A stretch of 63,482 nt of DNA, filler included, from Myxococcota bacterium (GTDB lineage Bacteria; Myxococcota_C; UBA6777), in assembly GCA_023150835.1 (NCBI GenBank). It is 3 parts of 3 records of this genome, joined end to end, with 100 filler letters (N's around TTAATTAATTAA, not from the genome) between each part and the next. Parts side by side here need not be neighbours in the genome. Positions count along the whole stretch, not along the records: positions 1 to 28,478 come from JAKLKB010000090.1; positions 28,579 to 56,810 come from JAKLKB010000091.1; 1 more part is not named here. The stretch is one strand, 5' to 3'. The notes beneath the pieces are model-generated. The model searched no databases, had not been told where the DNA came from, and worked only from the letters and a program-made list of their open reading frames with translations. Shown one piece after another: positions 2,043 to 52,931 of this stretch. Every line of letters begins with the position of its first letter. The stretch's first letter is position 1. Made by a program: the position numbers and the translations under genes.

Positions 2043-2165
2043 AAACCCCCCGTGTTCGCACCCGTCCAAGCGGCAGCGCCGTTGTTTTGAAAAACGGCTG
2101 TTCGCCCCGCCAATACGGGGTCAAGGGGCGACAGTCTATGGCGGGGCATGGTACCTCGCCCCACA
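2043..2165 (+). repeat. structured dispersed element family C, copy 1
   Basis: CCCGTGTTCGC...CAAGCGGC...TTTGAAAA...CCGCCAATACGGGGTCAAGGGG...GCCCCA block pattern shared with 9 other intergenic copies. Confidence 0.85.
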
Positions 2166-2210
2166 CAACAGAACGACCGCGATCACACCCAAAGGAAAAG
2201 GAGCGCAACC

Positions 2211-4328
2211 ATGCGCCGATACGGGCCAGCGATGGTGTTGTTTTTGCTACCGTTTGCCTATGATCCGTGGGCCTATGATGTATTGACCGCCAAATACGGG
2301 GCGTGGATGGTTTGCGTGGGGTTGTGGGCCAGCGTGCGGCTCTGGGAAGGGGATCTACCCCGTTATTCGGGCACGGCAATGGCTTTGTTGATCGGTTTGT
2401 ATTTGCCATCGTGGGTGCAGGGGGCTTCTTGGGCGCATACATGGGTGCCGTGGAGCCAAGCGCTTGCGTTGGTGTGGTGGATGTTGTTGGTGTGGGACGC
2501 GCTGCTACAAAGTGAAGAGCCGAGAGTGCTGCAAGCAACGTGGCTGCGGGCTTCTGCGATGGGATTGGTATCGATCTCGCTTCTTGCGGTGGTGGAGTGG
2601 TGGCATCCGCAAGCCTTCGTCTGGTCGGGTGCTGTAAGGGGATTGAGCAATGCGACGATGGGCAATCCCAACCATCTCGGGGCATTGCTTTCGGTGGGGC
2701 TACCGATCTTCTTTGTGCTGGGCAGGCGTTGGCGATGGGGAGCGCTTTGCGTGGTGGTGGGGATCGCCACGACAGGCTCTCGATTAAGCCTATTGACCGC
2801 CTACATCCTGATGGCGCTTGGGGCGATCTTGACGTGTTGTTTTGGTGGAGGGCAAACGCTGCGTGAACGCTTGCAAACGACCGCATGGGCGGCCTGTTGC
2901 ATCGGGGCGTTGTGGTTTGGCGCAAAGCAACTCACTCCACAAAAGCAGATCGCGGATATCGCGCAAGGAAGGGGCGGGATCTCTGCTCGCCTTCATCTTG
3001 TGCGATGCGCGCTACCGATGAGCCAAGAAGCCCTTCCTTGGGGCCTTGGCTACGGGCGCTTCCGTCAGCGTTTTCCTGCCCATCGTGGACGTTGTTTGAA
3101 GGGGACGGTCTTTGCGCAAGCTCCGCTACATACGGTCGCTGTCAACTTGCACAACGACTGGCTCCAGATCGCCCTCGAAGGCGGTCTATTAGTTGTTTCT
3201 GTGTTGTTGGCTGTGTTGCTTTGGTGGGGGCTGCTCTTGCTGCGCTCGCTCCGGATGAATCGCCCCACCCCATCGGCTCAATCTCCACAGTTTTCAGGAA
3301 ATGTATGGCTGCTTCTGCCGATGCTTGGGATTTTTGTGCAGATGGGTGGAACATTCCCGATCCAATTGCCGTCTGTTCTCGCGCTCGCGACACTTTGCGC
3401 GTTATCCGCCCAACACGCGATGTTTTGCGCATCATCAGTTCAACAGGCGATGCCCTGCGCATCATCATCCCGATACACGGCGATTTGCGCACGATTCGCC
3501 CGATACACAACACCCTTTCGTTGGTTCCGACACAGCCCCGAGCATCCTGCCCCACAACAAGCCACCACCGACGCAGCCGTTGGCTTCTATCTCAAAGCTA
3601 CGCTGCGATGGGGATATTGGGTGCTTTGGTTGGTAGTGATGTTTGTTGCGATGCGGGTGGTGCGAGCCGAACACTTGCTTGTCCAAGGGATGCGTGCGAT
3701 GGAGCGGCGTTCGTCCGATGCTACGGCACTTTTGCAACAAAGCGCCTCGCTGCACCCTTCCGAACAAGCTCTGTTCCAACTCGGCCAAGCACAGCTTGCA
3801 TCACGACAGCCCGAACCTGCCATCGACTCCTTGCAACGGGCTTATGCGATCTTTCCAGACGTTCAAGTCGCCCTCACGCTCGCCGAAGCCCATCTCGCTC
3901 TTCGCAATCTTCACCATGCCCGCCGTGATCTTCACCATGCCCGTCGTGATCTTCGCCATGCCCGTCGTGATCTTCGCCATGCCCGTCTTTGGCTGTTGCG
4001 TGGACTGGCCCTTCACCCCCACCACACCGAAACGATCTCGCTTCTGCGCCACATCCAAAAGATCACCTCCTCGACAAAAAAGATCACACCAAAGATGATC
4101 ACGCCTGTTTTGCCACCCACTTCACCCCCGAGCCTCCATCCCTTCCCTCGCCAACCTGCACCACAACCCTCGGATGATCCTGATCTGTGGCCTGCATCAC
4201 AACCCTCGGATGATCCTGATCTGTGGCCTAGATCACAGCCTGCCTCCCAACCCTCGGATCTGTGGCCTAGATCACAGCCTACGACCCAGACGACACCCTC
4301 ACCACCTCAAAAAAAGCATCTGCGATAA
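2211..4328 (+). CDS. O-antigen ligase (Wzy_C) family membrane protein with C-terminal TPR and Pro-rich repeats
   Basis: AGGAG RBS; many TM helices; ATMGNPNHLG and LHNDWLQIALEGG motifs; TPR-like helices. In-frame 21-bp (LHHARRD) repeats near 3905-3990 and 36-bp (PSDDPDLWP) repeats near 4165-4280. Confidence 0.8.
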   Translation: MRRYGPAMVLFLLPFAYDPWAYDVLTAKYGAWMVCVGLWASVRLWEGDLPRYSGTAMALLIGLYLPSWVQGASWAHTWVPWSQALALVWWMLLVWDALLQSEEPRVLQATWLRASAMGLVSISLLAVVEWWHPQAFVWSGAVRGLSNATMGNPNHLGALLSVGLPIFFVLGRRWRWGALCVVVGIATTGSRLSLLTAYILMALGAILTCCFGGGQTLRERLQTTAWAACCIGALWFGAKQLTPQKQIADIAQGRGGISARLHLVRCALPMSQEALPWGLGYGRFRQRFPAHRGRCLKGTVFAQAPLHTVAVNLHNDWLQIALEGGLLVVSVLLAVLLWWGLLLLRSLRMNRPTPSAQSPQFSGNVWLLLPMLGIFVQMGGTFPIQLPSVLALATLCALSAQHAMFCASSVQQAMPCASSSRYTAICARFARYTTPFRWFRHSPEHPAPQQATTDAAVGFYLKATLRWGYWVLWLVVMFVAMRVVRAEHLLVQGMRAMERRSSDATALLQQSASLHPSEQALFQLGQAQLASRQPEPAIDSLQRAYAIFPDVQVALTLAEAHLALRNLHHARRDLHHARRDLRHARRDLRHARLWLLRGLALHPHHTETISLLRHIQKITSSTKKITPKMITPVLPPTSPPSLHPFPRQPAPQPSDDPDLWPASQPSDDPDLWPRSQPASQPSDLWPRSQPTTQTTPSPPQKKHLR

Positions 4329-4552
4329 CATCGGTCAATCGGAGGCTTTGGAGAGCGATTGCGGCTTTTTTTCAAACGCTCGTCATTTTTTTGTTGACGG
4401 GGTTCGGTTCGTCGTGTAGACCGCCGCGCATCCTATCTCAGTATTTCACCACCAAGGGAGTTCCTTTCTGCAAACCTTCAACACTTTGTGCGTTTGCGTT
4501 CACGCTCCCGAAAGCATCGTTCGTCCCTTTTTTCCAGTCCAAGGAGACTACC

Positions 4553-5698: not shown

Positions 5699-5764
5699 TC
5701 TAGTTCCCACTCTACTCTTCTCTCCCCTTTATACGAAATCCGCCCGTTGAGTTATCGTAAAAAT

Positions 5765-5846
5765 GTAGGGGCAGCCCCCTGTGGCTGCCCAAGAATCGGG
5801 CGTCTACGTACTATCTTACGATCACACATCACTCGGATATCGTATT
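5765..5846 (+). repeat. REP family A with a conserved ~55-nt extension (ATCGGGCGTCT...CATCACTCGGATATCGTAT)
   Basis: The extension recurs at ~42968-43034 (+) and ~34576-34659 (-). Confidence 0.8.
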
Positions 5847-5902
5847 ACTCTGCTCTTCTGCCCCTCTCCCCAGTTTGTTGCTCTGCTCCATTTTGTTTTT
5901 TC

Positions 5903-6028
5903 TTTTGGGGTGCTACCCCACACCCCGCCATAGAACTGCCGCCCCTTGACCCCAGCATCGGCGGAACAAGCACACGTTTTTCAAACGAACGTCCGTGCCG
6001 CTTGAACGCTTGCGAACACGGGGTTTTT
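5903..6028 (-). repeat. family C element, copy 2
   Basis: Same block pattern on the minus strand. Confidence 0.85.
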
Positions 6029-6103
6029 CTCCACAAGCCACCCGACCCTCGCCTTCTTCCGCTTTTTTCTCCCCCCGTTTTTTTCTCCCCGTCCGTGTTT
6101 TCC

Positions 6104-6183
6104 GTGTTTTTCGTGGACTGTGTTTTTCGTGGACTGTGTTTTTCGTGGACTGTGTTTTTCGTGGACTGTGTTTTTCGTGGACT
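6104..6183 (+). repeat. perfect tandem repeat, 5 x 16 bp (GTGTTTTTCGTGGACT)
   Basis: Read directly; no spacers; lies between convergent genes. Confidence 0.95.
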
Positions 6184-6241
6184 CTTCTTTCTGTGCCTCA
6201 CGAAGCGCGAAACTCCCGCTGGTCGTATATGTTAGGCTGCC

Positions 6242-10824: not shown

Positions 10825-10916
10825 CGGAAGCGTACAGGAATCGAACCTGCCCACGAGGGATCACCCCGCACGACGGTTTTGAAGACCGCGAGCGCCACCA
10901 GACGCCATGCACTTCC
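10825..10916 (-). tRNA. selC: tRNA-Sec (anticodon UCA)
   Basis: Minus strand GGAAGTGCATGGCGTCTGGTGGCGCTCGCGGTCTTCAAAACCGT...GCAGGTTCGATTCCTGTACGCTTCCG: 8-position acceptor stem, 6-bp D stem with UGGU loop, CUUCAAA anticodon loop, long variable arm, G discriminator; CCA not encoded. Confidence 0.95.
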
Positions 10917-15820: not shown

Positions 15821-16043
15821 CCCGATGCTCCTTGGCTTGACTTGACAGGATCGCCGCAACTTTGTACAGCTTGGATCTTCTCTTCGTGCTTGGCCATCTT
15901 ACAGATCTGCCCAGAAAGCCCAAGTGCTGCTCCCTTCACACAACAAGGCTTCGCTCCCAAAAGGTAGGTCTTCCTTACTTTGGTTCTTTCTCGGTGATCT
16001 TTGCAATCCTTTTCTTCCTCTTTCGATACAGAAAGGTTCCACC

Positions 16044-16742
16044 ATGTCTTTCTCTTTCCTTCACATCGAACGCCACGACGATATCGCCTGCATCACCCTC
16101 CAGCGCAAAGAAGACAACAGCATGGATCGCGCTTGCTTGCAGGAGATCATCGATTGCCTCGATCACATGGAAGAAGACCACAGCGTCAAAGCCATCCTCT
16201 GGACGGGACATGGAGAAAAATACTTTAGCACAGGCATCGATCTACAATGGTTCACCCAAGCAGGACCCGATGCTCTCCCCGGCTTTATGCGCAAGATCGC
16301 CGAGATGACCCACCGCACCCTGATCTTTCCCAAGCCCACTGTCGGCGCATTCAACGGCCACTGCTTTGGCCTCGGTGCGATCTGGTCTTGCGCCTTTGAC
16401 TTCCGCTTCATGCGCCAAGATCGCGGCTGGTTCTGCTTTCCCGAAGTCGACGTCAATATCCCCCTCGCTCCCGGCATGCGCGAACTGATCTGTGGAACCC
16501 TCCCCTTCTCCACCACCAACCGACTGCTGCTCACTGGACAACGTGTCGGCGGCGAAGACGCCGTACGCATGGGCATCGTCGAAGCTGCTTATCCCAAAGA
16601 CACCCTTCTCCAACAAGCCCTCGCCTTCACCCGTATCCTCGCCTCCAAAGAACAAACCATCTACGCCAGTCTCAAACACGACCTACGCCGCGAAGCCATC
16701 ACCGCTTACGCCACTTATCTTCAAGAAAATCCTCCCGCCTGA
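16044..16742 (+). CDS. enoyl-CoA hydratase/isomerase family protein
   Basis: Crotonase motifs KYFSTGIDL, FPKPTVGAFNGHCFGLG and FCFPEV. Confidence 0.9.
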   Translation: MSFSFLHIERHDDIACITLQRKEDNSMDRACLQEIIDCLDHMEEDHSVKAILWTGHGEKYFSTGIDLQWFTQAGPDALPGFMRKIAEMTHRTLIFPKPTVGAFNGHCFGLGAIWSCAFDFRFMRQDRGWFCFPEVDVNIPLAPGMRELICGTLPFSTTNRLLLTGQRVGGEDAVRMGIVEAAYPKDTLLQQALAFTRILASKEQTIYASLKHDLRREAITAYATYLQENPPA

Positions 16743-16798
16743 TCTTTTGTCTCTCCGATGCAACGGGCGATTCGATGAAACGTGACACCGTTGCATGG

Positions 16799-16923
16799 TT
16801 TTGCGGGGCTTTGCCCCATACCCCACAAGGGAGCGCGGCTCCCTTGACCCCGTATCGGCGGAACGAGTAGACGTTTTTCAAACCCACGACTGCGCCGCTT
16901 GAACGTCCGCGAACACGGGGTTT
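16799..16923 (-). repeat. family C element, copy 3
   Basis: Best-paired copy: 15-bp P1 stem with one mismatch. Confidence 0.9.
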
Positions 16924-17001
16924 ATGTCCGCGACGAAAGTCCTGCCCATCAAAAAGACAGCAAAAGCGAGATCCCAAGCAAAGGAGCACGTCGATCACAC
17001 G

Positions 17002-18180
17002 ATGACCCACCACCAAACGAAATGGATACGGGAGCTTCGGTGGATACAACATCTTCGGTCGGGCGTTCCGTTGTTTTGGCTTGTTTCGATGCCTCTTCTT
17101 CTTGACGCAGCGCAATTCACCCAGATCCGTCCATCCCGCACCTTTTCTCGAACAGCCGAATTTCGCCATTTTACCGAACAGATCCAACTCACCGAACAGC
17201 CTTGGCAACAGCACAAACAACGATGCGGTTGGCATCTCTTTGTTCACTTTCATCCACGCGGCCGATCTTCCTTTCGCTACGGCCCATTCTACCGAGGATT
17301 TGTTCTTCCATCGACCTCCCGACCTGCGATCCGCGCCCGAACCTTGGTGCTGTTGCTCGGACTCTTTTGGGACGCCGCACAACAAGAACAAAGCGCAGGC
17401 GCGCTCTCTTGCACACAACGACAAACTCGTATCCTTTCCGTCTCTCTACCCGGGACACTACCCGCCCCACCAACGCCCCCACCCGATCGCTCTCTCTCCA
17501 AACCGCCCAAACCACCGATGCCTTCTCCTATCCCCCCCAAACCGCCCAAACCACCGACGCTCCCAACCACCGCCCGAGCCACGCTCCCACCTGCCCGCCC
17601 CTCCTCCCAACCCACCTCGCTTCCGTTGTCATCGCCCACGTCCTCACCCACTCCGCCAATCAAACGCCCCTCCTCCCGCCCTGTACCCTCCGCCCAAAAC
17701 ATCCCGTTGGACTTCACCTTGGGCGGCCACTTGACTCCCTTTATTGGCTTCAACGGCAACTTGATCTGGGCAAGCTCGATCACAACGCTCTACTGGCCTA
17801 CATCACCGTGGCGGATGCGCATTGAGGCCACTGGCGGACGCTATGACGACCCCAACCAAGGCAGCCAGATCATCGCCCAGATCAACGCCTTGGCCGAATG
17901 GGTTCCTTGGCGCTCGCGCTTTTTCTCGTGGGATATCCATCTCGGACTTGCGCTGATCTTTTCTTGGACTTACAAAGATCTCGGTAGCTACTTGTGGATG
18001 ACGCTCGGGATCCAAGGCGGAACCGCTTTTTCTTGGCACCCCATCGATCGACTCAGCCTTTTTCTACGCCTCGATATCGCCTACTATCCCTTCCGTACGC
18101 CAGCAAAAGATGATACCTCTTATCGCCACCTCCATGATTCCTATCTTCTCCCGATACTCGGCGCTTCATGGAGATTCTGA
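17002..18180 (+). CDS. hypothetical protein with Pro-rich linker and C-terminal outer-membrane beta-barrel-like domain
   Basis: Alternating amphipathic strands, terminal ...LGASWRF. Start uncertain (ORF open from 16924). Confidence 0.6.
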   Translation: MTHHQTKWIRELRWIQHLRSGVPLFWLVSMPLLLDAAQFTQIRPSRTFSRTAEFRHFTEQIQLTEQPWQQHKQRCGWHLFVHFHPRGRSSFRYGPFYRGFVLPSTSRPAIRARTLVLLLGLFWDAAQQEQSAGALSCTQRQTRILSVSLPGTLPAPPTPPPDRSLSKPPKPPMPSPIPPKPPKPPTLPTTARATLPPARPSSQPTSLPLSSPTSSPTPPIKRPSSRPVPSAQNIPLDFTLGGHLTPFIGFNGNLIWASSITTLYWPTSPWRMRIEATGGRYDDPNQGSQIIAQINALAEWVPWRSRFFSWDIHLGLALIFSWTYKDLGSYLWMTLGIQGGTAFSWHPIDRLSLFLRLDIAYYPFRTPAKDDTSYRHLHDSYLLPILGASWRF

Positions 18181-18210
18181 GAACTCCCCGTAAGCGCGAC
18201 ACAGTCTATC

Positions 18211-18335
18211 AAAACCCGTGCTCGCGCCACTCCAAGCAGCAGAGTTGTCTGTCTGAAAAACGTTCATGCACTCCGCCAACGCAGAGTCAAGGGAGTCGCG
18301 ATCCCTTGCGGGGTGTGGGGTCGAACCCACAAAAC
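18211..18335 (+). repeat. family C element, copy 4
   Basis: Block pattern. Confidence 0.8.
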
Positions 18336-18457
18336 AAACCCAACCACGCAAGCCCTCTCTCAAAAAAATTTGAAATATCGGCTTCTCTCTTACAACGAAG
18401 TGTTTCAGAGCAAAAGCAGCCTGTTGGTTCGCTTGGTTCATCGGAGCTTTTTGGATC

Positions 18458-19114
18458 ATGTTGCCGTCACTCTCTCCTCCACCGACGCAAGGCCCTATCC
18501 CATCGGCTCCAACAGAGCATGAACACGATCTTGCGCTCGCCACGCGCATCCTCGCAGGAGAACGCAGCGCATTTGCCCAACTCTACGAGGCTTGCGCTCC
18601 TGCTCTCCTGCGGCGACTCACCCGCATGACGGGGTCGATCGATCACGCCGAAGACTGCTTACAACAAGTCTTCGCGGAAGCCCTGCGCGCCTTGCCACAA
18701 TACCGAGGAAAAGGGCGTCTTGAGGCTTGGCTTGAACGCATCGCCACCCATACCGCGATGGGCTGGTATCGCAAAAAGTACCGCTGGCGCTCATTTGTCG
18801 AACAAGTGGTCGAGCAGCTCACCCCCGAATCCACGCTCCCTCAGCCCGACCCCTTGCCCGAACAAATTTTTCTTCACGAGGAGATGAAAGCCGTGGTGTG
18901 GCAACTTCTGGATCGACTCAGCCCTCGAAAGCGCATGGCTCTCGTGTTGTGCGATCTCGAAGGACGCACCATCGAAGAAGCTGCCGAACAGATGGATATC
19001 CCCGTCGGTACGGCGGCTTCTCGTCTCTTTCACGCACGTCAAGACTTCCGAAAGATCGCCCTCGCCGAACTGCGTCGTCAGGGCCTTGATGTGGGGGATT
19101 GGATCCATGATTGA
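18458..19114 (+). CDS. ECF-type RNA polymerase sigma-70 factor
   Basis: Region 2 AEDCLQQVF...LEAWLERIA; region 4 LDRLSPRKRMALVLCDLEG...EAAEQMDIPVGTAASRLFHAR. Confidence 0.92.
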   Translation: MLPSLSPPPTQGPIPSAPTEHEHDLALATRILAGERSAFAQLYEACAPALLRRLTRMTGSIDHAEDCLQQVFAEALRALPQYRGKGRLEAWLERIATHTAMGWYRKKYRWRSFVEQVVEQLTPESTLPQPDPLPEQIFLHEEMKAVVWQLLDRLSPRKRMALVLCDLEGRTIEEAAEQMDIPVGTAASRLFHARQDFRKIALAELRRQGLDVGDWIHD

Positions 19115-20438
19115 TCACACAAACAAACAAACCACCCCAAAAACGTCTCCAACCCCCGTTCTCTCGACCTTATGGGCGTCGGCCTCTTTGCGCGAAACCT
19201 ACGACGCTTGCCTTCCCTCCCCAGAACAAGAGCAAGAAAGCCTCGCCAAAGTTCGACGCCTGCTATCTCAAGACTTTTCGCCCTCGCCCAGCACTTCCTC
19301 CAACACATCCCCAAAACGGCCTTGGTTCCGCATCGCATGGGCAAGCATCGCAACCGTCGGAGCCTTCGCTTTTGTGCTTTTCCTCTGGCCGTATCTCGAA
19401 CCCCTCGAACCCTTCACTCTCCAAGGCATCTCCCCCACACAAACACAAAAAGACGGTTCGACCCATTTCCAAACAGACCAATCCACCGCAACCATCGCCT
19501 CCAAAGGCCACTGGTCGGTCGTCGTGGCCCCACGCTCTAGCATCATCCTCCAACGCAAAGCCGCCCGAAACACCGCCCTCCAACTCGCACACGGCCGCGT
19601 CCAAGTCGCCGTCACTCCCCAACAATACGAGTCCTTCACCGTTCATCACAAACGCTGGCAAGTCCGCGTCAAAGGCACACACTTCGCCGTCTCACAACAC
19701 GCACACACCTTGCGCATCGAAGTTTGGACAGGACAGGTCGAGATCCACAACGCCTCTCACCCAGATCACTCCTCTCACCCGTTTCGCCTCAACCAAGGCG
19801 AAGGTGCGCACATCGACCTTTCCACTTCTCGCGTCCGTCGTTTTCCCGTCCCTCCTCTTTCGCTCCCTCCCCAACAGCACCTATCATGGGCCTCCAAGCT
19901 CTCTCCCACGCTCTGCGCACAATACGCGCTCGATCTCCCCGCTCAAACCAACCTTCCCGCCCCGCTACGCGCACAGATCCTCCAACACCTCCTCGCCTCC
20001 CTCCTCTTCCGCAGCGAGCCTTCTCTCTGGCTCCCCTTGCTCGAAGCACAACAGCGCCTCGAACAAGATCCCCTCGCCCAAGAAACCGCCCTCTATCTAC
20101 TCCTCCAACGCTGCTATTCCACCGCCCCCACCCGTTGCCTCCCTCTCTCCACTTGGTACATCGAGCACTTCGCCAAACGCGGGATGCGGCCCTTCCTTGC
20201 TCGAATCCACTTTCTCCGCGCCGATGCCCTCGCCTCCCAACCCCACTCCGCCAAACAAGGACTCCTCGAACTCAAAAGCTTCCGCGAAACCTTCCCCCAA
20301 GGTCTCGATCGCCGCCGCGCTTGTGATCGCATCAAGATCACACTCCAACACACTTCTCTCCCTGATCTGCGATCACTGTCCGAAGAGATCGGTGTAAAAA
20401 GTCTTTGGTTTTCAAGACACTGCCCCTTTTCAAAATAA
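19107..20438 (+). CDS. FecR-domain anti-sigma factor with TPR-like C-terminus
   Basis: Start overlaps the sigma stop (ATGATTGA); single TM; FecR motifs LAHGRVQVAV, VRVKGTHFAV and IEVWTGQVEI. Confidence 0.85.
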   Translation: MIDHTNKQTTPKTSPTPVLSTLWASASLRETYDACLPSPEQEQESLAKVRRLLSQDFSPSPSTSSNTSPKRPWFRIAWASIATVGAFAFVLFLWPYLEPLEPFTLQGISPTQTQKDGSTHFQTDQSTATIASKGHWSVVVAPRSSIILQRKAARNTALQLAHGRVQVAVTPQQYESFTVHHKRWQVRVKGTHFAVSQHAHTLRIEVWTGQVEIHNASHPDHSSHPFRLNQGEGAHIDLSTSRVRRFPVPPLSLPPQQHLSWASKLSPTLCAQYALDLPAQTNLPAPLRAQILQHLLASLLFRSEPSLWLPLLEAQQRLEQDPLAQETALYLLLQRCYSTAPTRCLPLSTWYIEHFAKRGMRPFLARIHFLRADALASQPHSAKQGLLELKSFRETFPQGLDRRRACDRIKITLQHTSLPDLRSLSEEIGVKSLWFSRHCPFSK

Positions 20439-20467
20439 AGCCCGCAGTACTGGTGTGATCGCAAAAC

Positions 20468-20520
20468 GTAGGGGCAGACCCCTGTGCTGCCCAACAACAG
20501 GGCGTTTACAACAAACCTTG
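20468..20520 (+). repeat. REP family A with extension CAGGGCGTTTACAACAAACC
   Basis: The same extension flanks the copy at 67-94 (reverse orientation). Confidence 0.75.
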
Positions 20521-20644
20521 GCGACGTTTCGATCACGCATCTCTCAAATATCGTACATCAGGTGTCCCAAACCAACAGCCCTGCCGCGAACACAGGGATG
20601 TTTGCCCGCAAGCCACCCCAATCAAAAGATCGCTCCACTCTTCA

Positions 20645-20760
20645 TAGGACTTACGCAGTTCGATACGAAAAAGGCCCATGTTCGGGCGCGGGCGGTTCGC
20701 GAACCGCCCCTACAACGGGTTGATTCTTCACGCTTTCCCTCTTCAACTGCGTAACTCCTA
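20645..20760. mobile_element. 116-bp MITE with 16-bp TIRs and 6-bp target-site duplication, carrying a REP-B
   Basis: Left end TAGGACTTACGCAGTT; right end (reverse complement) TAGGAGTTACGCAGTT; TCTTCA duplicated at 20639-20644 and 20761-20766. Confidence 0.85.
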
Positions 20761-20916
20761 TCTTCAAGCCATTCCGATCAAAAGATCGATCCACTTTTTT
20801 TGATAGATCGCCACCCCTCTCGCAACGTGTGGCGTGAATGAAAAAGAAACAGAGTCCAGTATGTCTCACCAACGCATACTCGCTCACTTCACAAACCAAC
20901 GATCTTACAGACAACG

Positions 20917-21648: not shown

Positions 21649-21667
21649 AAGTGGCGCGTTGGGTTTA

Positions 21668-21795
21668 TTTTGTGGGGTTGGAACCCCAAACCCCACAAGG
21701 GACTCACGCCCCTTGACCCCGTGAGGGGCGAAAAGATCGCAGGCTTTTCAAAACAACGACTCTGTCGCTTGGACGGGCGCGATCACGGCTTTTTT
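21668..21795 (-). repeat. family C element, copy 5
   Basis: Block pattern; compensated P1 CCGTGA/TCACGG. Confidence 0.85.
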
Positions 21796-22034
21796 GCCGC
21801 GCAACGGCTCAATAAACCACGAACAATATCTCGCTCTTCTCCTCTTTTTGGGGCTTGGCAGAGCCCTGATGTGGTCGTCTTTCTTGAAGTGAGTTGACAA
21901 CCTACAGGAAAGACGGCCACTTCCCTTTCGGGAAGACCTTTTCTTCTCTGCACACGGCCCAGATTGCTCAGATTTGTTCTGATATGTAAATAGATCGTTC
22001 TCTTGCAGCTTTTTCTATCAAGAAACGAAGCATC

Positions 22035-22162
22035 AAAACCCCCCGTGTTCGCGAGGCTTCAAGCGGCACGAATGTTTGTAAAAAAACCTCCGTTCACCCC
22101 GCCAAGTCGGGGTCAAGGGGCCAGCGGTCCCTTGCGGGGTTTGGTACCTCGCCCCATAAAAC
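22035..22162 (+). repeat. family C element, copy 6
   Basis: Block pattern; inverted relative to copy 5. Confidence 0.85.
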
Positions 22163-22223
22163 AAAAATAAAACCAACCCGCTATGTTCACAAAACAACAA
22201 ACCACCACGAAGGAGTCTCTCCA

Positions 22224-23117: not shown

Positions 23118-23186
23118 TCCATCCCTCCGCCCCCCCAAAAACAACCACCAAACTGATCAAGATCCGATCTGAATCACGGCCTCGAT

Positions 23187-23313
23187 AAAAAGCCCGTGTT
23201 CGCGCCACTCCAAGCGCCACCGTCGTTCGATTGAAAACATCTATTCACCCCGCCAAATACGGGGTCAAGGGAGCGTGGCTCCCTTGCGGGGCGTGGGGCA
23301 GCGCCCCACCAAA
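23187..23313 (+). repeat. family C element, copy 7
   Basis: Block pattern. Confidence 0.85.
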
Positions 23314-23379
23314 GACAAAAACCACACCAACAAAACCAACCCAACGAACAATCGCCCCACCCGCGCTCAAAATCTCGAA

Positions 23380-24558: not shown

Positions 24559-24590
24559 CAAATCAAGCCTCCCAAAAAAAACGCCTACAC

Positions 24591-24677
24591 CGCGCTCAGC
24601 CCGCTGCCTACGCCTCTTTTTACGCGCTCGGCTCGCTGCCTACGCCTCTTTCTACGCGCTCGGCTCGCTGCCTACGC
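24591..24677 (+). repeat. 32-bp tandem repeat (~2.7 units) in the thiolase upstream region
   Basis: CGCGCTCGGCTCGCTGCCTACGCCTCTTT(T/C)TA, period 32. Confidence 0.9.
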
Positions 24678-32906: not shown

Positions 32907-34417
32907 ACCGACCTCATGCGCGTATTCACCCCTTTGATTGCCAAACCGCTGCCATCCATTCGACGCGAGGGATCTTTTGCAATCGTACGCTGAACCTACG
33001 AACCATCCGAGCGATCGGCTACGATATGGACTACACCCTCGTCCATTACAACGTCGAACGATGGGAAGAACAAGCCTACGAGGCCACACGCCTTCGGCTC
33101 GAACGCGAAGGATGGCCTGTCAAAGGACTCACCTTCGATCCACAACGCATCGTGCGCGGTTTGGTGCTGGATCTCGAACTCGGAAACATCATCAAACCCA
33201 ACCGCTTCGGATACATCACACGCGCTGCTCATGGCACGCAGATGATGGACTTCAACGAGATGCGCGAAGTCTACGCTCGCACCCTGATCGATCTCTCGGA
33301 TCGACGGTATATCTTCCTCAATACCCTGTTCTCGATATCGGAAGCATGGCTGTTTGCGCAACTCGTCGATCTCATGGATCACGGCATCCTCACCCAAGTC
33401 CCGACCTACGAAGCTCTCTACAAAACAGTCCGCCACGCCATCGACACCACCCACATGGAGGGCGAACTCAAAGCCGAGATCATGCAGCACCCCGAGCTTT
33501 ATGTCGAACCCGACCCCGATATCCCGCTTGCGCTGCTCGATCAAAAAAGCGCAGGCAAACGACTTTTGCTGATTACAAACTCCGAATGGTTCTACACACG
33601 CTTTATGATGCGTTACGCCTTTGATCGCTTTTTGCCCAAAGGGATGACGTGGCGCGATCTGTTTGAACTGGTCGTCGTTTCCGCACGCAAGCCGGACTTC
33701 TTCTCCCTGCGCGCCCCCGTCTTTTCAGTCGTGGACGAAGAAAATGGTCTCTTGCAGCCCTACATCTCCAAACTACAAAGCGGTGGCGTCTATCTTGGCG
33801 GAAATGCCGGCCTCATCGAATCTTCTCTCGCTCTTTCTGGCGAAGATATCCTGTATGTCGGGGACCACATCTACGGCGATGTGACGGTTTCCAAAAGCAC
33901 GCTGCGTTGGCGCACGGCCTTGATCTTGCGCGAACTCGAAGCAGAACTCGAATGTGTCGAATCCGCCCGCCTTCAGCAAGAACAAATCAACGTCATGATG
34001 GAAACCAAGGAAGCGATGGAGGCCGAACTGTCAGCACTCAAACTCGATATCTTGCGCAAAGAACACCACTACGGACCCACCACCGAAACCCCCGAAGCCC
34101 AACTCCGTCAACGCGCCAAACAACTCCGCGAAGAACTGGTCGCCCTCGATAACCAGATATCCCCTCTTGTTGCCGAAGACTCCGAGCGCGTCAACCCTTA
34201 CTGGGGCTATCTGATGCGCGCTGGCAACGACAAAAGCCATCTCACCCGCCAAGTCGAGCGCCATGCCGATATCTATATGTCCCGTGTCTCCAACTTCCTC
34301 TTCTATACGCCATTTATGTACTTTCGCTCTCCTCGCGGCTCCATGCCACATGATATGCCCACCCTTGAGATCCCGCCCTCTCCCCACCTCACTCCCCGCC
34401 CTCCGACCCTCTCCTAG
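32903..34417 (+). CDS. HAD-IG family 5'-nucleotidase (cN-II-like)
   Basis: IFCNRTLNL, GYDMDYTL, LITNS, ARKP and YVGDHIYGDV motifs; ATGA overlap with trmB. Confidence 0.92.
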   Translation: MNRPHARIHPFDCQTAAIHSTRGIFCNRTLNLRTIRAIGYDMDYTLVHYNVERWEEQAYEATRLRLEREGWPVKGLTFDPQRIVRGLVLDLELGNIIKPNRFGYITRAAHGTQMMDFNEMREVYARTLIDLSDRRYIFLNTLFSISEAWLFAQLVDLMDHGILTQVPTYEALYKTVRHAIDTTHMEGELKAEIMQHPELYVEPDPDIPLALLDQKSAGKRLLLITNSEWFYTRFMMRYAFDRFLPKGMTWRDLFELVVVSARKPDFFSLRAPVFSVVDEENGLLQPYISKLQSGGVYLGGNAGLIESSLALSGEDILYVGDHIYGDVTVSKSTLRWRTALILRELEAELECVESARLQQEQINVMMETKEAMEAELSALKLDILRKEHHYGPTTETPEAQLRQRAKQLREELVALDNQISPLVAEDSERVNPYWGYLMRAGNDKSHLTRQVERHADIYMSRVSNFLFYTPFMYFRSPRGSMPHDMPTLEIPPSPHLTPRPPTLS

Positions 34418-34575
34418 TATAATTCCCCCCAATGATCGGCACTTTGCGTCCGAACTCCCCACCTCACTCCCTAACATTCGGACACATCGTCTGTGCTGTC
34501 GAAAAGGCCGTACGTTTGTACGTCAAAAGGCCAACCAAACGCAAAAAAGCGGATGTTCCTCGCTCGAACCACTGC

Positions 34576-34860
34576 TCATACGATATCCGAGTGATGTACA
34601 CAGCAAAAGAGAGCACCCAGACGCCCGATGGTTGGGCAGCCACAGGGGGCTGCCCCTACGTCTTTACGATAACGCAACGGGCGGATCTCGTATCATACCA
34701 CATTCTGTGGTGGTGTGAGCCTGTCCATTCGCTGCTCTATGTCCCGATACACGGGCGGTTCACGAACCGCCCCTACGCCAACATAGACGATGTGTCCGAG
34801 TGTTAGCCACACAGGGCTGCCCCACCCTGTTTACGATCACACACCCTGCGGATCTCGTAT
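34576..34860. repeat. mosaic REP cluster (extended REP-A, extended REP-B, degenerate REP-A)
   Basis: REP-A at 34632-34659; REP-B at 34753-34776 with an upstream extension shared with 61290-61356; partial copy at ~34804-34825. Confidence 0.8.
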
Positions 34861-34875
34861 GACGCAATCCACACG

Positions 34876-35002
34876 TTTTTGTGGAGTGCCACCCCACACC
34901 CCTCCGTAGACGTTCGTCCCTTGACCCCGCGAGGGGCAAACAGATCACTGTTTTCCAAACCAACAGCGTTCTCGCTTGAACAGGTGCAAACACGAGTTTT
35001 TT
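34876..35002 (-). repeat. family C element, copy 8
   Basis: Block pattern; P2 CGCTGTT/AACAGTG. Confidence 0.8.
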
Positions 35003-35026
35003 GTCAACCGCGTAAGCCCTATCCTT

Positions 35027-36547: not shown

Positions 36548-36599
36548 GGATCGACCTCCTATCCAGTCGCAGTAAGAGTCACATAATTCAGTAGAGGCA

Positions 36600-36722
36600 T
36601 GGGGCTTTGCCCCACACCCCACAAGGGAGCGCGGCTCCCTTGACCCCGTATGGGCCTCCGTGATCGGGGGTGTTTCAAACAAGCAGCACAGCCGCTTGAA
36701 GTGCCGCGAACACGCGGCCTTT
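36600..36722 (-). repeat. family C element, copy 9
   Basis: Block pattern. Confidence 0.85.
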
Positions 36723-36980
36723 GTCAACTACGTAAACTACAGCAAGCGACACTGTTGTTGTCCAAAAAAACATCGAACTCGTCGCCTTGTGTTGTGGAAA
36801 AGTCAAACCGCGTGCTTGACACGGAGACGAACGCCACCCACATGGTAATGGCTTGGTTATGCTGGACGTCTCAACGAAGCACCAAACTTTCTGCTCAAAA
36901 AGAGATGGAATGTTGCGCAGACTGTCTGGTATAGAAAGCCCCGTTATTCCTGTAAAGCACACAAGGATCACAAAGTCGGC

Positions 36981-37637: not shown

Positions 37638-37640
37638 ACA

Positions 37641-39149: not shown

Positions 39150-39161
39150 GAAGCGCCTTTT

Positions 39162-39692: not shown

Positions 39693-39718
39693 CTTTGAAC
39701 TCGATCTGGATAAACCGA

Positions 39719-42874: not shown

Positions 42875-43032
42875 CAAGAACCTCCGTTGAACATTCAAAA
42901 ATGTCCATAGATCGGTGTCTATGGTGGACAAAAACCCACGTTCGCGCCACATCAAGCGGCTCCGTTGTCGGCTGCCCTATAATCGGGCGTCTACGTACTC
43001 TCCTTTGCTGTGTACATCACCCGGATATCGTA

Positions 43033-44621: not shown

Positions 44622-44630
44622 CCGCGCCTC

Positions 44631-49436: not shown

Positions 49437-50967
49437 ACAGCGAACCGCCCCCCTCTTCCAACAGCTCCTTGCTTCCATCCGACCGAGGCTCGGGGGTTTC
49501 CTCGCTTTTCTTATTGCACTCGGATGGCTCCCCCAAAGCTACGCCCAAAACCCACCTCCTCCCGCCTCTTCCACGAGCCGCTCTATCGCACCGCCCTCTT
49601 CCCAATACGAGGTCAAGAGGGCTTCGCTCCCTTGCGGGGCATACGACAGCGCCCCACAACACAAACCCCACCCGCTCGATCCAAAAAAGAAGAAAAAGCT
49701 GCAGATCCTGTTTCGCAGACCGTTCAAGAAACAAAAAAGAGATCCTGAACGCTTAGAGATTGGGGGATTTCCAGCGCTTGGCTACAGCATTGACCGAGGA
49801 TTGGGGCTGGGCGTGTTGTTAAACTTGGCGCGTTTTTCGCGGGGCTATTATCCGTATCGTTGGCGTTTGCGCTTGCGAGTCCAATTCACGGCACGCATCG
49901 ATCTCGCGGGGGGGATCGAGATCCCTTATCACGATCATTTCGTGGTGTTGGATCTGCCCAAAGTCAGCGAAGGCGTAAGATTACAGCTACAAGCGGGCTT
50001 TCGGCGTTTTTCGACAGCAGGGTACTTTGGTTTGGGCAACGCCGCCCCGACTGCTTCGCCTTGGGAGGGCATCGATCCCGAAAAAGCGCCAGAGCAGTAT
50101 CGAGCCGCTCGGCGCTATCAACAATACGATCGGATCTACCCGCAGATCGCTTTTGCAGCGCGGATCGCCTTGTGGCGGCGGGGCAGACAGCGCCTCGAAT
50201 TGTTTTTGTCCACCGATCTGACTTACAACGTATTGACGATCTACCCGGGTTCTCGGCTCGAAGAAGATGTGCGAGAAAGCACACAAGACACCCAACGCGG
50301 CGCGGTGTTGCGCGGCCATCTCAAGGGCCTCGCACCGCATTTTTTGTGGATGAGTGCAGCGGGTCTGCTGTGGGAGACGCGGGATCACGAATTCAACCCG
50401 ACACGCGGGGGGTTCCACGAGATCTCGCTGCGCGGTTCTCCCGGCGTGGATGCGCGGCTTGCGTTCGGTGGAGTGAACGCCACGTTTCGGTGGTATGTCC
50501 CGATCTATCGGGAGTATCTGGTTTTTGCTGCGCGATTGTTGGGTGATATCTTGTGGGGAACGGTGCCCTTTTACTTGTTGGCGGAGCATGGCGGTTTTTT
50601 TCCTGCGGGAACCTTCGGATCATCCGAAGGATTGCGCGCTTTGCCGTTAGGCCGAATACACGGAAAGATCAAGCTACTTGGCACCATCGAGTTGCGGTCG
50701 ATGTTCTGGTCGTTTCGGTTGTTTTCGCTGCCGATGCGTTTGGGAGCGCATCTGTATGCAGACGTTGGACGCGCATGGTTGGACGAAACCGAAGCCGCCA
50801 AGCGGTTCGATGGACTCACTTCTACCGAGACGCTTTGGGGGTTAAAGATCGCTGGCGGAGGCGGTCTGCGCTTGCAATGGGGAGAAGCCATCGTCGTGCG
50901 CCTTGATCTGGGGTATTCCAACACAGGCGATATCGGGTTTTATTTGGGGACGGCACAAGCTTTTTAA
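49429..50967 (+). CDS. Omp85/BamA-TamA family outer membrane protein, paralog 1
   Basis: [20 protein letters not shown] and DVGRAW motifs; terminal GTAQAF. Proposed TTG start overlaps the tkt stop (uncertain). Confidence 0.8.
49604..49660 (+). repeat. family C 3' half embedded in frame in the Omp85 paralog 1 CDS
   Basis: AATACGAGGTCAAGAGGGCTTCGCTCCCTTGCGGGGCATACGACAGCGCCCCAC versus copy 7 AATACGGGGTCAAGGGAGCGTGGCTCCCTTGCGGGGCGTGGGGCAGCGCCCCAC. Confidence 0.75.
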
Positions 50968-51144
50968 CGAAGGTCTTGTCTTGTGGAGCGTTTTGGGCCA
51001 CAATCCGGCCTCTTGCCGTTGTTTTGTTGAGGGGTCCTGTGGAGTGTCTGTGGGAACCTTGACGCTGGATGCTCTCGCAAAAGCGAGACGATCTTGCGCG
51101 TGGATGGATGAAAGACGCAGTTGCACAGTTGAGGAGCGAGTGGA

Positions 51145-52818
51145 ATGAGGGAGAAGTTGAAGGTTCAACGTCGAGCGAAGAAGACACACAAGGTTTCAAG
51201 CGAAAAGCCAGAGACGCTTTTTGTGCGCCGTGGCGGCGCAAAAGCCGGCCTGAGCCATCTGTTGTTGTGTGCGATGGGGATCGGCGTGTGGCTGTTGTGG
51301 GGAGGACTGGCGTGGTCCCTGCCTCAAAGCTTTCAAGAGACGGGCAGTTCGGGATTTTTAAAGAACAGAGGTGAACGCTCGCTGTATGCACGCCTTGCGG
51401 GTTGGTCGCTTGAAGAGACCCCACCACGCCACGTCGCACAAGCCCCCAAAGCCGCCGAGGACGCAGCCAAAAAAACGGAGCGCAACATCAAAGACACCCA
51501 AGAAGCGCTCGAAGCACAAAAAAACAAAAAGACGCAGATCTTTGTCAAACGCCCACTCAAAGCCCTCGCAAGCAAAGAGCCGCCCAAAAAAGATCCCAAT
51601 CGCCTAGAGATTGGGGGACTTCCAGCCGTCAACTACAACATCGACACGGGCTTTGGTGTGGGTGTGATCTTGAACCTTGCGCGGTTTGCGCCCGGCTATT
51701 ACCCCTATCGTTGGCGTCTCTTTTTGCAGATCTACACCACGCTTCGCCCTGATCCTGCGGGTGGCGTCGAAAACCCCTATCACAGCCACTTTTTGGAATT
51801 GGATATGCCCGGGATCATCGAAGGCGTGCGACTTCGTGCGCGTGTCGAGTTTCGGCGCTTTTCCACAGCGGGCTATTTCGGGCTTGGCAACGACGCCCAG
51901 AAAGCAGAGCCTTGGAACGCCATTGATTCTGCAGCCGATCCCGAAGGCTACCGCGCCGCCCGCCGCTACCAACAATACGACCGCATCTATCCCTTTGCGT
52001 CCTTGGGAGCGCGCATTGCGATGTGGCAACGCGGCAAAGAACGCCTCGAACTCTTCTTAACAGGCGCGTTCACCTACAACTTTATGAACGTCTACCCGGG
52101 TTCGCGCCTTGAACAAGACATCAACGAAAGCAAAACCAACACCGCAAGAGCCCAAGAGATCCGCCAACAACTGCGCGGCGTCACACAGCACGCTCTGCTC
52201 GAAGGCGGCGTCGGCTTGTTGTGGGACACCCGCGACAACGAATTCACCCCCCAACGCGGTATCTTGCACGAGATATCTTTTCGCGGCTCCCCGGGCGTCG
52301 ATGCGAACCTCTCTTATGCCGGATTTAACGCAACTTTGCGCTTTTACCAATCGATCTACAAAGAATATCTTGTGATCGCCTTCCGCATCTTGGGCGATAT
52401 CATGCTTGGCAACGTCCCCTTTTATCTGATGGCCGAGCATGGGGGCTTTTTTGCAGGAAACACGCTTGGCGCGGGCGGTGGGTTGCGTGCCATACCAACA
52501 GGCCGATATCACGGCAAGATCAAGATGCTCGGAAACCTCGAACTGCGCTCCAAGTTCTTGACCTTCAATATCGGAACGGTCCCCTTTAGCCTCGGCGTGT
52601 TGGCCTTTTTTGACTTTGGCCGAGCATGGTTGGACTTCTCAGGCAAAACAGATATCTTCGACGGCATCGACAACGCCGCAAACTTGTTTGGGATGAAGTT
52701 TTCAGGTGGCGGTGGTCTGCGTATTCAATGGGGCGAATCCTTGGTCGTCCGCCTTGATGTGGGGTACTCCAATATCGGTGAATTGGGCTTTTATCTCGAT
52801 ATCGCACACATCTTCTAA
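51145..52818 (+). CDS. Omp85/BamA-TamA family outer membrane protein, paralog 2
   Basis: Long identical stretches with paralog 1 (e.g. [28 protein letters not shown]); terminal AHIF. Confidence 0.85.
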   Translation: MREKLKVQRRAKKTHKVSSEKPETLFVRRGGAKAGLSHLLLCAMGIGVWLLWGGLAWSLPQSFQETGSSGFLKNRGERSLYARLAGWSLEETPPRHVAQAPKAAEDAAKKTERNIKDTQEALEAQKNKKTQIFVKRPLKALASKEPPKKDPNRLEIGGLPAVNYNIDTGFGVGVILNLARFAPGYYPYRWRLFLQIYTTLRPDPAGGVENPYHSHFLELDMPGIIEGVRLRARVEFRRFSTAGYFGLGNDAQKAEPWNAIDSAADPEGYRAARRYQQYDRIYPFASLGARIAMWQRGKERLELFLTGAFTYNFMNVYPGSRLEQDINESKTNTARAQEIRQQLRGVTQHALLEGGVGLLWDTRDNEFTPQRGILHEISFRGSPGVDANLSYAGFNATLRFYQSIYKEYLVIAFRILGDIMLGNVPFYLMAEHGGFFAGNTLGAGGGLRAIPTGRYHGKIKMLGNLELRSKFLTFNIGTVPFSLGVLAFFDFGRAWLDFSGKTDIFDGIDNAANLFGMKFSGGGGLRIQWGESLVVRLDVGYSNIGELGFYLDIAHIF

Positions 52819-52931
52819 TCGCGACACTTCAAGCGGTGCCGTTGTTCGTTTGAAAAAAACTAGGGTTGTTCCGCCGATATGGGGTCAAGGGGCGACAGTC
52901 CCTTGTGGGGTTTGGGGCAACGCCCCAAAAC
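52819..52931 (+). repeat. family C element, copy 10 (5'-clipped at the upstream stop codon)
   Basis: Block pattern. Confidence 0.85.

Follow-up and report, generated by a model that had tools for sequence, protein, structure and literature searches.

Family C, which lies at hundreds of intergenic sites in an uncultured activated-sludge myxobacterium, is in our estimate (probability roughly 0.7) the inner core of a MITE, a ~170-bp non-autonomous DNA transposon, because its best-preserved copies share their terminal inverted repeats (TIRs) with ISMesi2 and with a 1,065-bp insertion sequence (IS) of the IS701 family. On this reading it is ordinary selfish DNA and not a new RNA gene, and its core is cargo, not a sequence derived from a transposase. 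An earlier note on the window (the whole 63,482-nt stretch of DNA that was analysed, hereafter the 63-kb window) had suggested a functional RNA or an ssDNA substrate of an HUH/Y1 transposase; the mobile-element part of this suggestion holds, but for an element of the TIR-bearing MITE kind, and our results speak against both the RNA gene and the HUH/Y1 substrate.

The ten copies listed in that note were all recovered, at the same places and on the same strands, with R1, a covariance model built from family C in this analysis (104.5-137.1 bits, E 3e-27 to 4e-36). The homology of copy 10 begins at ~52819, where the note had it start, and the list lacks one partial copy, the next-best R1 match (Table 1). 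The fixed blocks were borne out by an alignment (A1) with 36 invariant columns over the 10 copies, and the motif CGGGGTCAAGGG, with 2 mismatches allowed, was counted 20 times where 6.8 were expected, a number that 0 of 100 shuffles reached. A search of Rfam 15 gave no family matching family C, in agreement with the remark that it was not recognised as a named family.

Table 1. Family C copies and related features in the 63-kb window
Feature	Position	Strand	Remarks
Copy 1, core	2036..2179	+	R1 119.3 bits; PD40-repeat gene and Wzy_C gene on either side, same strand
Copy 2	5890..6035	-	R1 122.4 bits; convergent genes on either side
Copy 3	16788..16932	-	R1 137.1 bits; antisense to both neighbouring genes
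Copy 4	18202..18345	+	R1 107.3 bits
Sister MITE, 116 bp, same TIRs	20645..20760		carries the RAYT-type REP palindrome GGGCGGTTCGCGAACCGCCC as cargo
Copy 5	21657..21802	-	R1 117.1 bits
Copy 6	22029..22172	+	R1 115.8 bits; shares intergenic region with copy 5, opposite orientation
Copy 7	23180..23324	+	R1 125.7 bits; convergent genes on either side
Copy 8	34866..35009	-	R1 104.5 bits
Left TIR beside copy 8	35005..35021	-	TAGGGCTTACGCGGTTG, 2 mismatches to the motif
Copy 9	36584..36729	-	R1 111 bits
Short 5' fragment	42926..42971	+	matches profile positions 5-50 (nhmmer E 5.9e-5)
Partial copy, 3' half with P3-P4	49583..49672	+	R1 31.6 bits; nhmmer 1.8e-10
Copy 10	52799..52943	+	R1 109 bits; 5'-truncated; adjoins an Omp85-family gene at its stop codon

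The best-preserved copies are ~170 bp long and end in 17-nt TIRs, TAGGA(G/C)T(T/G)ACGCAGTTG. Their order is left TIR, A-run, ~125-nt core, A/C-rich tail and right TIR, with a 5-6-bp A/T-rich target duplicated on each side; the core is made of a long irregular hairpin, P1-P2, followed by two short ones, P3 and P4. The same ends abound in the Myxococcota MAG KLAP109 (G001; DNA ~91% identical to the window genome), where the 17-nt motif occurs 325 times (reversed control, 7). The TIR pairs among the 100 matches listed there fall into a class of 116-117 bp and one of 168-174 bp, the longer of which coincides with family C matches on contigs C3, C260 and C432. All eight fetched pairs of this longer class are bounded by both TIRs and show one uniform architecture, a uniformity that fits one founding element rather than repeated captures; the target duplication is perfect in only two of them (TGTAT, TAAGGA) and one base off in two others. 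The sister family of 116-117 bp, which is the shorter class in KLAP109, has a perfect target duplication in 5 of 7 cases, and its member in the window is flanked by a perfect 6-bp duplication, TCTTCA. Over the whole copy set, the 5' and 3' flanking consensus sequences are weakly complementary.

Exact 17-mers also bound elements that carry a transposase gene. At one locus (L224) they enclose the 1,065-bp element, with the duplication AGAAT and a 334-aa ORF whose score for NF049921 (IS701 family transposase) is 360 bits at a cut-off of 250, and on a plasmid of Allomeiothermus silvanus an element of 1,092 bp with a gene annotated as 'IS701-like element ISMesi2 family transposase'. This ISMesi2 group, with the size of a one-gene IS (1,065-1,092 bp), has 17-nt TIRs identical to those of family C, TAGGAGTTACGCAGTTG and TAGGACTTACGCAGTTG, and the target duplication is short in both (AGAAT at L224, 5-6 bp for family C and its sister); family C differs in that it has no transposase gene, a core that is unrelated to the IS interior and was met in its own lineage only, and mostly copies without ends. 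An intact IS701-type transposase was not found in KLAP109, which is a fragmented MAG : PF13546 gave nothing, and NF049921 only a 22-bit match to a remnant, an internally deleted element of 220 bp with both TIRs around the first ~45 codons of an IS701-type transposase. From these shared ends we infer that an ISMesi2-like DDE transposase of the IS701 family, supplied in trans, would bind both TIRs of family C and move the element, cutting the target with a 5-bp stagger. Once the element has inserted, its TIRs would no longer be needed and would decay, so that most copies would come to appear as bare cores, the form described in the earlier note.

Arm-bearing copies are the least diverged, as is expected if the bare ones are decayed: closeness to consensus is 0.78 with both arms, 0.73 with one and 0.71 with none (with-arm versus none, p 0.0007). 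A TIR 9-mer with at most one mismatch was seen on the left of 7 and on the right of 8 of the 54 flanked copies (controls, 0), and both arms, at up to 4 mismatches, in 3 of the 54. For the window's 10 copies, the best adjacent arm match has at least 4 mismatches, the left arm by copy 8 (2 mismatches) excepted. Since most copies have no recognisable ends, TIR-based transposition is for these something that we infer from family membership and do not see. A passage of a MITE review describes direct repeats that wane with time, and truncated QMITE2 elements that lose direct repeats and TIRs and resemble REPs (PMC10969869).

KLAP109 contains 375 exact matches to GGGGTCAAGGG-N7-12-CCTTG versus 0 for the control, and at least 150 R1 matches; among 40 genomes, KLAP109 and 39 relatives, it is the only one with strong R1 matches. 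Even so close a pair differs in the copies present. Copy 4 is shared, on contig C397 at the same position (135 of 145 nt identical, 93%), and so is copy 9, with 112 of 147 identical (76%) between flanks that are ~92% identical. Copies 2, 8 and 10 are absent from KLAP109, and copy 7 from another strain, in which contigs of the runs X17, X3 and X6 have 7 other letters in place of the sequence between 23135 and 23351. None of these four cases offers a clean empty site with repeat and duplication: window positions 5732-6229, around copy 2, correspond to ~50 nt on contig C27; copy 8 lies within a missing stretch of 585 nt (34417-35002, against 54 nt on contig C92); and the insert with copy 10 is flanked by a 9-nt direct repeat, CTTCTAATC. 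At the copy 8 site KLAP109 has the left TIR without the core.

This last observation would also suit another history, in which the P3-P4 module, or the core, is an older repeat of this Myxococcota group, with a spread or function of its own, that an IS701-type MITE captured secondarily, most bare copies never having had TIRs. A model of P3-P4 only (R2), searched in 60 genomes, found the module at at least 79 places in genome G004 (at least 84 matches), at least 84 times in KLAP109 and once in G059, with no match in the 57 others. The G004 copies lie in a different module mosaic and covary strongly (both sides change in 9 of 15 pairs and 92.8% of cells are paired, which 0 of 500 shuffles reach); beside the 14 that were inspected by eye, no IS701-type TIR repeat was seen. 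The core may thus predate the IS701-type transposon and be independent of it, and the scarcity of two-armed copies points the same way, as does the lack of the family C core from all 125 loci that carry the 17-nt repeat (79 of the 80 loci with listed titles being in other genomes). Secondary capture is nevertheless unlikely in our view, given the single architecture of the eight two-armed copies, the low divergence of arm-bearing copies and the weak complementarity still retained by the flanks of the set; moreover, no alternative mobiliser was found.

KLAP109 encodes a 184-aa RAYT-like protein, which has the HUH-like motif 'HLH', a YWERIIRD motif and a Pfam Y1_Tnp score of 26.5 bits. Together with the hairpin-rich element, its strand-asymmetric pairing and the want of TIRs in most copies, this protein could suggest that family C is an ssDNA substrate of an HUH/Y1 transposase, either REP/BIME-like through a RAYT or as a PATE of the IS200/IS605 type. 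However, this gene, the single Y1_Tnp match found in KLAP109, is flanked on both sides by another repeat, GTAG plus GGGCGGTTCGCGAACCGCCC, in the classic inverted arrangement, and the nearest family C copy is ~1.2 kb away. In the aligned copies no REP of the GTAGGGG type that lies beside the gene was seen, and the different REP around the gene argues against family C as a RAYT-mobilised element. Y1 elements make neither inverted repeats nor target duplications, both of which the least-diverged copies possess, and we consider mobilisation by such an enzyme highly improbable. Family C does resemble REP, BIME and REPIN sequences in being hairpin-forming, extragenic and very abundant, and a RAYT with its REPs is found in the same genome, such a REP being the cargo of the 116-bp sister MITE; but it is far longer, and it differs in the TIRs and duplications of its least-diverged copies and in the RAYT being flanked by another repeat.

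The fold of family C is preserved only in part. Pairing was tested on 60 distinct copies, and the claim that the divergent parts still pair applies to P3, P4 and one pair of P2: a copy's own partner arm folds better than another copy's in 54 of 60 for the inner stem of P3 (p 1.7e-8) and in 56 of 60 for P4 (p 3e-8). The closing pair of P4 is C-G in 32 copies and U-A in 26, while 2 copies leave it unpaired; one pair at the base of P2 is G-C in 30 copies and A-U in 25, with something else in 5. The claim fails for the variable inner P2, where there is no own-arm advantage (22 of 59, p 0.63). P1 is nearly invariant, which leaves this comparison little to work on (38 of 59, p 0.36); the compensated CCGTGA/TCACGG reported for it exists, but in one sequence only, pair 20-84 being UA in 50 copies and AU in 1. 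The inner third of P1 as first drawn (GCGG/CCGC) fits better at the base of P2: 55 of 59 copies have a Watson-Crick pair at 38-77, and 30 of 59 a standard pair at 26-77. For a mobile element of the kind proposed here, P3, P4 and the P2 base might be kept paired by selection on a single-stranded form of the top strand or by hairpin-templated mutation, and exchange between copies would spread the paired state.

Another possibility is that the fold is selected because the copies are functional RNAs, as small RNA genes or as cis elements of mRNAs (leaders, 3'-end stabilisers, terminators). The covarying pairs in P3, in P4 and at 38-77 vary independently, all 8 combinations of three such pairs, 134-148 among them, occurring in 2-9 copies each, and the G-T asymmetry noticed earlier is real in P1, with 73 G-U cells versus 8 A-C cells. 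Many copies lie directly behind stop codons, and an RNA-library contig begins within copy 3 and extends into the gene that follows; the contigs listed from DNA runs likewise start or end within this copy. Against this stand the absence of a match in Rfam, the lack of covariation in inner P2, and the hundreds of copies whose presence varies between close relatives. In the 8.7 kb from 15900 to 24600, with 5 copies, the number of promoter-like sites was 0 and no terminator recurred from copy to copy. Co-orientation with a flanking gene, said to hold for most copies, proved uninformative: of the 39 copies for which both neighbouring genes were called, 14 are placed between convergent, 6 between divergent and 19 between same-strand genes, the last being 8 sense and 11 antisense by crude ORF calls. 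The neighbouring genes are functionally unrelated. An RNA function is thus very unlikely, and the placement is typical of selfish intergenic repeats.

As a MITE, family C has known counterparts. The Correia elements (CREE/NEMIS) of Neisseria, ERIC/IRU of enterobacteria and QMITE2 of Coxiella are non-coding, 100-200 bp long, bounded by inverted repeats, present in many intergenic copies, strain-polymorphic and stably folded when transcribed. The likeness to Correia and ERIC is one of general form; these families and QMITE2 have their own ends, target sites and internal motifs, whereas family C combines IS701-type ends with a G-tract-rich module of two hairpins.

The conserved part of family C, the repeated intergenic element, ends at AAAAACCCCGTG on its 5′ side and at CCCCACAAAA on its 3′ side, and the flanks beyond it follow a weak consensus in which the two sides are complementary to each other. 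A subset of copies carries 17-nt terminal inverted repeats, TAGGA(G/C)T(T/G)ACGCAGTTG. As a stand-in for a genome-wide comparison we used G001, the MAG 'Myxococcota bacterium KLAP109', which is about 91% identical to the window (88-96% in orthologous DNA). There, the 17-nt motif was found 325 times with up to two mismatches, against 7 for the control, and in the 100 of these places that were listed, facing repeats lie either 116-117 bp or 168-174 bp apart, the longer class coinciding with matches to family C. Inspection of 14 repeat-bounded regions fetched from this genome revealed a uniform build in all eight pairs of the longer class: repeat, A-run, folded core, A/C tail, repeat. Target duplications were perfect for two of these eight (TGTAT and TAAGGA), one base off for two and unrecognisable for the other four; in the 116-117-bp sister family, five out of seven were perfect (TCTATA, TCTACT, TTAGA, TAGAAA and TGTAA). 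Our preferred reading, to which we give a probability of roughly 0.7, is that an old MITE family, a few hundred copies strong, carries family C as its cargo core and has the ends and target duplication of ISMesi2-like elements of the IS701 family. There would then be one candidate new RNA class fewer, replaced by a testable mobile-element model which names a transposase family, ends and a target duplication.

The link to IS701 comes from other genomes. A scan with the exact 17-mer returned at least 125 loci (L166-L290) from many phyla and groups, including Chloroflexota, Armatimonadota, Poribacteria, Cyanobacteria, Methanosarcina and Nitrososphaerales. In the loci listed, facing 17-mers are mostly 64-284 bp apart, and three pairs are 1,065-1,110 bp apart. 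One of the latter encloses a protein (L224) scoring 360 bits on the NCBIfam model NF049921, 'IS701 family transposase' (cut-off 250), and its closest named relative among the 12 tblastn records listed, at 52% identity, is annotated as 'IS701-like element ISMesi2 family transposase'. The family defined by this end is thus very widely spread and the end itself unusually conserved: among the matches listed, one 17-nt IS701-type sequence bounds MITEs of 64-284 bp across many bacterial and archaeal phyla. At the level of whole elements, the exact end TAGGA(G/C)TTACGCAGTTG (at least 125 bacterial and archaeal loci) bounds both MITE-sized elements with varied cargo and IS701-family elements of 1.07-1.11 kb. 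The family C core was present in none of the 125 listed loci that carry the exact 17-mer. No intact IS701-type transposase was detected in G001 (no match to PF13546, and a remnant only with NF049921); the remnant is a 220-bp sequence holding, between both repeats, the start of such a transposase gene (~45 codons). A repeat pair about 2 kb apart on G001 contig C435 was considered as a transposase carrier and rejected, the enclosed ORF resembling, by eye only, a Mur ligase of the Mpl/MurC type. In the portions available of papers combining IS701 and MITEs, no IS701-derived MITE is described, and our searches found no literature mention of ISMesi2.

Coordinates of family C fragments, related mobile elements and other features (window positions unless a fetched locus, L, is named)
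Feature	Location	Strand	Remarks
Partial family C copy	49583-49672		Next match of the whole-family model R1 after the 10 copies, 31.6 bits
Family C 5′ fragment	42926-42971		nhmmer
Sister MITE, 116 bp, same ends as family C	20645-20760		TCTTCA on both sides
Right-end fragment of the 116-bp MITE type	296-312
IS701-family element, 1,065 bp	L224:953-2017		334-aa protein; 5-bp duplication AGAAT
ISMesi2-annotated element, 1,092 bp	L292:161-1252		Allomeiothermus silvanus plasmid; both 17-mer variants exact at the ends
RAYT-like gene, 184 aa	L144:1459-2013	-	G001 contig C260; inverted GTAGGGGCGGTTCGCGAACCGCCC repeats on both sides
Second repeat family, ~118 bp	5731-5848		Further copies near 34560-34700 and 34800-34860
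Selenocysteine tRNA gene	10826-10916	-	Rfam tRNA-Sec, 70.6 bits; between ORFs of 1,492 and 1,600 aa
ORF with quinolinate phosphoribosyltransferase domains, then the C-terminal part of an FHIPEP (FlhA-like) domain	29735-32101	+

The earlier note had suggested, as one of two alternatives, an ssDNA substrate of an HUH/Y1 transposase. This does not hold: the RAYT-like gene of G001, the sole Y1_Tnp match in that genome, is flanked by GTAGGGGCGGTTCGCGAACCGCCC and not by family C, an arrangement which is the classic RAYT/REP layout. REP, BIME and REPIN elements are built on a short 5′-GTAG palindrome flanking the RAYT gene; family C differs, the GTAG-type REPs found at the RAYT gene being unlike it. 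PATEs of the IS200/IS605 type have subterminal hairpins and a cognate TnpA(Y1), without inverted repeats or target duplication, whereas the best-preserved family C copies do have inverted repeats and, in part, duplications. A third possibility, SINE-like retroposition, was hinted at by copy 10, which lacks its 5′ end and lies between 9-nt direct repeats. We rejected it on two points: partial copies of the 5′ half (four) and of the 3′ half both occur, several of them adjoining full copies, and the apparent 9-nt duplication partly overlaps the element's own right repeat. In the window, the cargo of the 116-bp MITE is a 20-bp palindrome, GGGCGGTTCGCGAACCGCCC; it is that of the GTAG-type REP flanking the G001 RAYT gene. 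This is a REP hairpin being spread by, or inserted into, a DDE-type MITE; the cargo of a MITE can be a REP hairpin of the RAYT type or a two-hairpin module that covaries. A GTAG-type hairpin (GTAGGGGCAGCC...GGCTGCCC) lies inside the members of the second repeat family (~118 bp), whose ends are TACGAAATCCG...CGGATATCGTA and whose many G001 copies often directly abut the right end of family C.

Family C itself is non-coding, with a core of about 125-145 nt and a full form of 168-174 bp. The 10 window copies reported previously (10 per 63 kb) can be aligned along some 140 nt, 36 columns being invariant, and all were recovered, at 104.5-137.1 bits, by the covariance model R1 built from 19 copies. 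The motif CGGGGTCAAGGG, allowing two mismatches, occurs 20 times in the window against 6.8 expected, a number reached in none of 100 shuffles. That the family was not recognised as a named one agrees with Rfam: the copies gave no Rfam 15 match at the gathering thresholds, nor any up to an E value of 10, and a scan of a single copy with lax filters gave just one 14-bit match (E 9.8). Only tRNA-Sec reached an Rfam gathering threshold in the window. When 185,579 species genomes were scanned with a loose pattern, most matches were chance ones; strong full-length matches (E 1.5e-26 or better) were found at nine loci, all in KLAP109. R1 has at least 150 matches in that genome, the weakest among those listed scoring 109.7 bits. 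The exact motif GGGGTCAAGGG-N7-12-CCTTG occurs there 375 times (189 forward, 186 reverse; 0 in the control) and is present in 6 of the 10 window copies, the alignment being read by eye, so that the total in G001 would be roughly 400-600 copies. Such a number explains the assembly breaks at family C sites in this lineage. Among 40 genomes searched (G001 and 39 relatives), strong R1 matches were confined to G001, with weak ones in G004 (7) and G026 (1). The public runs that hold the window region are mostly labelled as activated sludge, sludge or aquatic metagenomes. In the literature searched, we found neither a description of family C nor, among the papers listed, anything on repeats of this type in Myxococcota.

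Comparison with relatives was possible for six of the 10 window copies. G001 has copies at the sites of copies 4 and 9 and lacks copies 2, 8 and 10. In a related strain, contigs from runs X3, X6 and X17 (two DNA runs and one RNA-library run) pass over copy 7, 7 other letters standing where it would be. Thus, with regard to the orthologous empty sites that the earlier note proposed to look for, copies are indeed absent from relatives at four sites, but no clean empty site was among them. Around copy 2 there are further repeats and a 16-nt tandem array; copy 8 is part of a 585-nt insert of which G001 retains the adjoining repeat alone; and the direct repeat beside copy 10 overlaps that copy's own right end. 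Copy 9 (36584-36729) is only 76% identical (112/147) to its positional counterpart in G001 (L128:2773-2916), against about 92% for the flanks, and the differences cluster in P2 and at the tip of P3, hairpin tips being replaced wholesale. This pattern suggests sequence exchange, or gene conversion, between dispersed copies. Family C is thus lineage-restricted and undergoes gain and loss, and probably conversion too. Its cores have a mean pairwise identity of 75%. Both arms were present, with up to four mismatches, in only 3 of 54 flanked copies from a sample that was not picked for repeats. Similarity to the consensus is 0.78 for copies with both arms, 0.73 with one and 0.71 with none (p 0.0007; 9 of the 63 copies were picked for having arms). 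The family is old and most of its copies are decayed, as a review (PMC10969869) likewise describes, in the part available, for other MITEs. It would clearly illustrate how the loss of their ends makes old MITEs resemble structured RNAs, which aids in judging similar finds. Short tandem arrays with units of about 9-20 nt (e.g. six of GTGTTTTTCGTGGACT) lie at the junction of core and flank, at window 6090-6190 and in many G001 copies; these junctions seem liable to slippage or duplication.

How much of the proposed four-helix fold is maintained depends on the helix. The RNAalifold consensus of 19 copies was poorer and partly different, with one compensatory pair, and we therefore tested the hand-defined helices. 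When 60 distinct copies were aligned to R1, standard pairs filled 88.2% of cells, against 40-55% with the partners slid by 1-3 columns, and overall covariation was modest, with 7 pairs showing two-sided change against 6.1 in shuffles; in these statistics the alignments are fitted to the model, which favours structure, and kinship is ignored. The highest corrected mutual information was obtained for three column pairs: 146-151, which closes P4 (C-G in 32 copies, U-A in 26), 38-77 (G-C 30, A-U 25) and 134-148 (C/G in 29 and T/A in 21 of 60 copies), an association which no helix of the model explains. In A3, the alignment of copies, column 134 is the base after P3 and column 148 the middle of the P4 loop. 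All eight combinations of the three pairs occur, in 2-9 copies each, and they are therefore not the reflection of one subfamily split. An alignment-free test, in which the left arm was folded either with its own right arm or with that of another copy, agreed with the claimed pairing of P3 and P4, the own partner folding better in 54 of 60 copies for inner P3 and in 56 of 60 for P4. It gave no support to the claim that the inner, variable part of P2 still pairs (own-partner advantage in just 22 of 59, p 0.63). A small effect for P2 (38/59, p 0.013) is lost when pair 38-77 is left out together with its neighbours. For P1, which hardly varies, the result was 38/59 (p 0.36). The P1 described earlier needs redrawing, its inner part being really the base of P2, as pair 38-77 shows; the reported G-T asymmetry was reproduced, with 73 G-U against 8 A-C in P1. 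In summary, pairing is maintained in P3, in P4 and at the base of P2; the other parts of the proposed fold either do not vary or are not preserved. The hairpins may be kept by selection on RNA or ssDNA, by hairpin-templated mutation together with exchange between copies, or as an older functional module.

The last of these options can be considered with G004, where the model of P3-P4 only (R2) matches at least 79 places. There the module belongs to a mosaic unlike family C, made up also of tandem arrays, further small hairpins and the motif GCCAAGCGAAGCGCGGCAG (L294-L321), and visual inspection of 14 copies showed no IS701-type end repeat next to them. For 15 distinct sequences from G004 and another genome, G059, two-sided changes affect 9 of 15 pairs against 3.9 in shuffles (0 of 500 as high) and 92.8% of cells are paired, again with alignments fitted to the model, thus favouring structure, and with kinship ignored. 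The layout is a G-tract, TY, the P3 hairpin, GCGGG(G)TGT, the P4 hairpin and ACAA, with four conserved G-tracts; the tract between P3 and P4 has no partner in the hairpin model. We consider it unlikely, though worth stating, that this two-hairpin module is a functional single-strand element, kept by compensatory change in at least two diverged genomes of an uncultured Myxococcota group, and later taken up as cargo and spread by an IS701-type MITE. If it were functional, it could act as a signal, in RNA or ssDNA, that is useful to the host or serves the element itself, such as a protein-binding or processing site; a switch between hairpins and a G-quadruplex formed by the four G-tracts would be another possibility.

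The genes next to family C are functionally unrelated (O-antigen ligase-like, enoyl-CoA hydratase, an ECF sigma/FecR pair, thiolase, transketolase, Omp85 and others), and the window holds no transposase. Among 39 copies for which both neighbours were called, with crude ORF calls, 14 lie between convergent, 6 between divergent and 19 between same-strand genes; these 19 are divided into 8 sense and 11 antisense. In the region 15900-24600, with five copies, no sigma-70-like promoter was detected; the 14 sites resembling terminators (10.6 expected) include none that recurs from copy to copy. Contigs from the RNA libraries X17 and X18 (one sample), which carry no strand or end information, break at the repeats like DNA contigs. 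As to the ORF at 29735-32101, it may be an unusual gene fusion, an artefact of ORF calling or the result of reading through a truncated gene.
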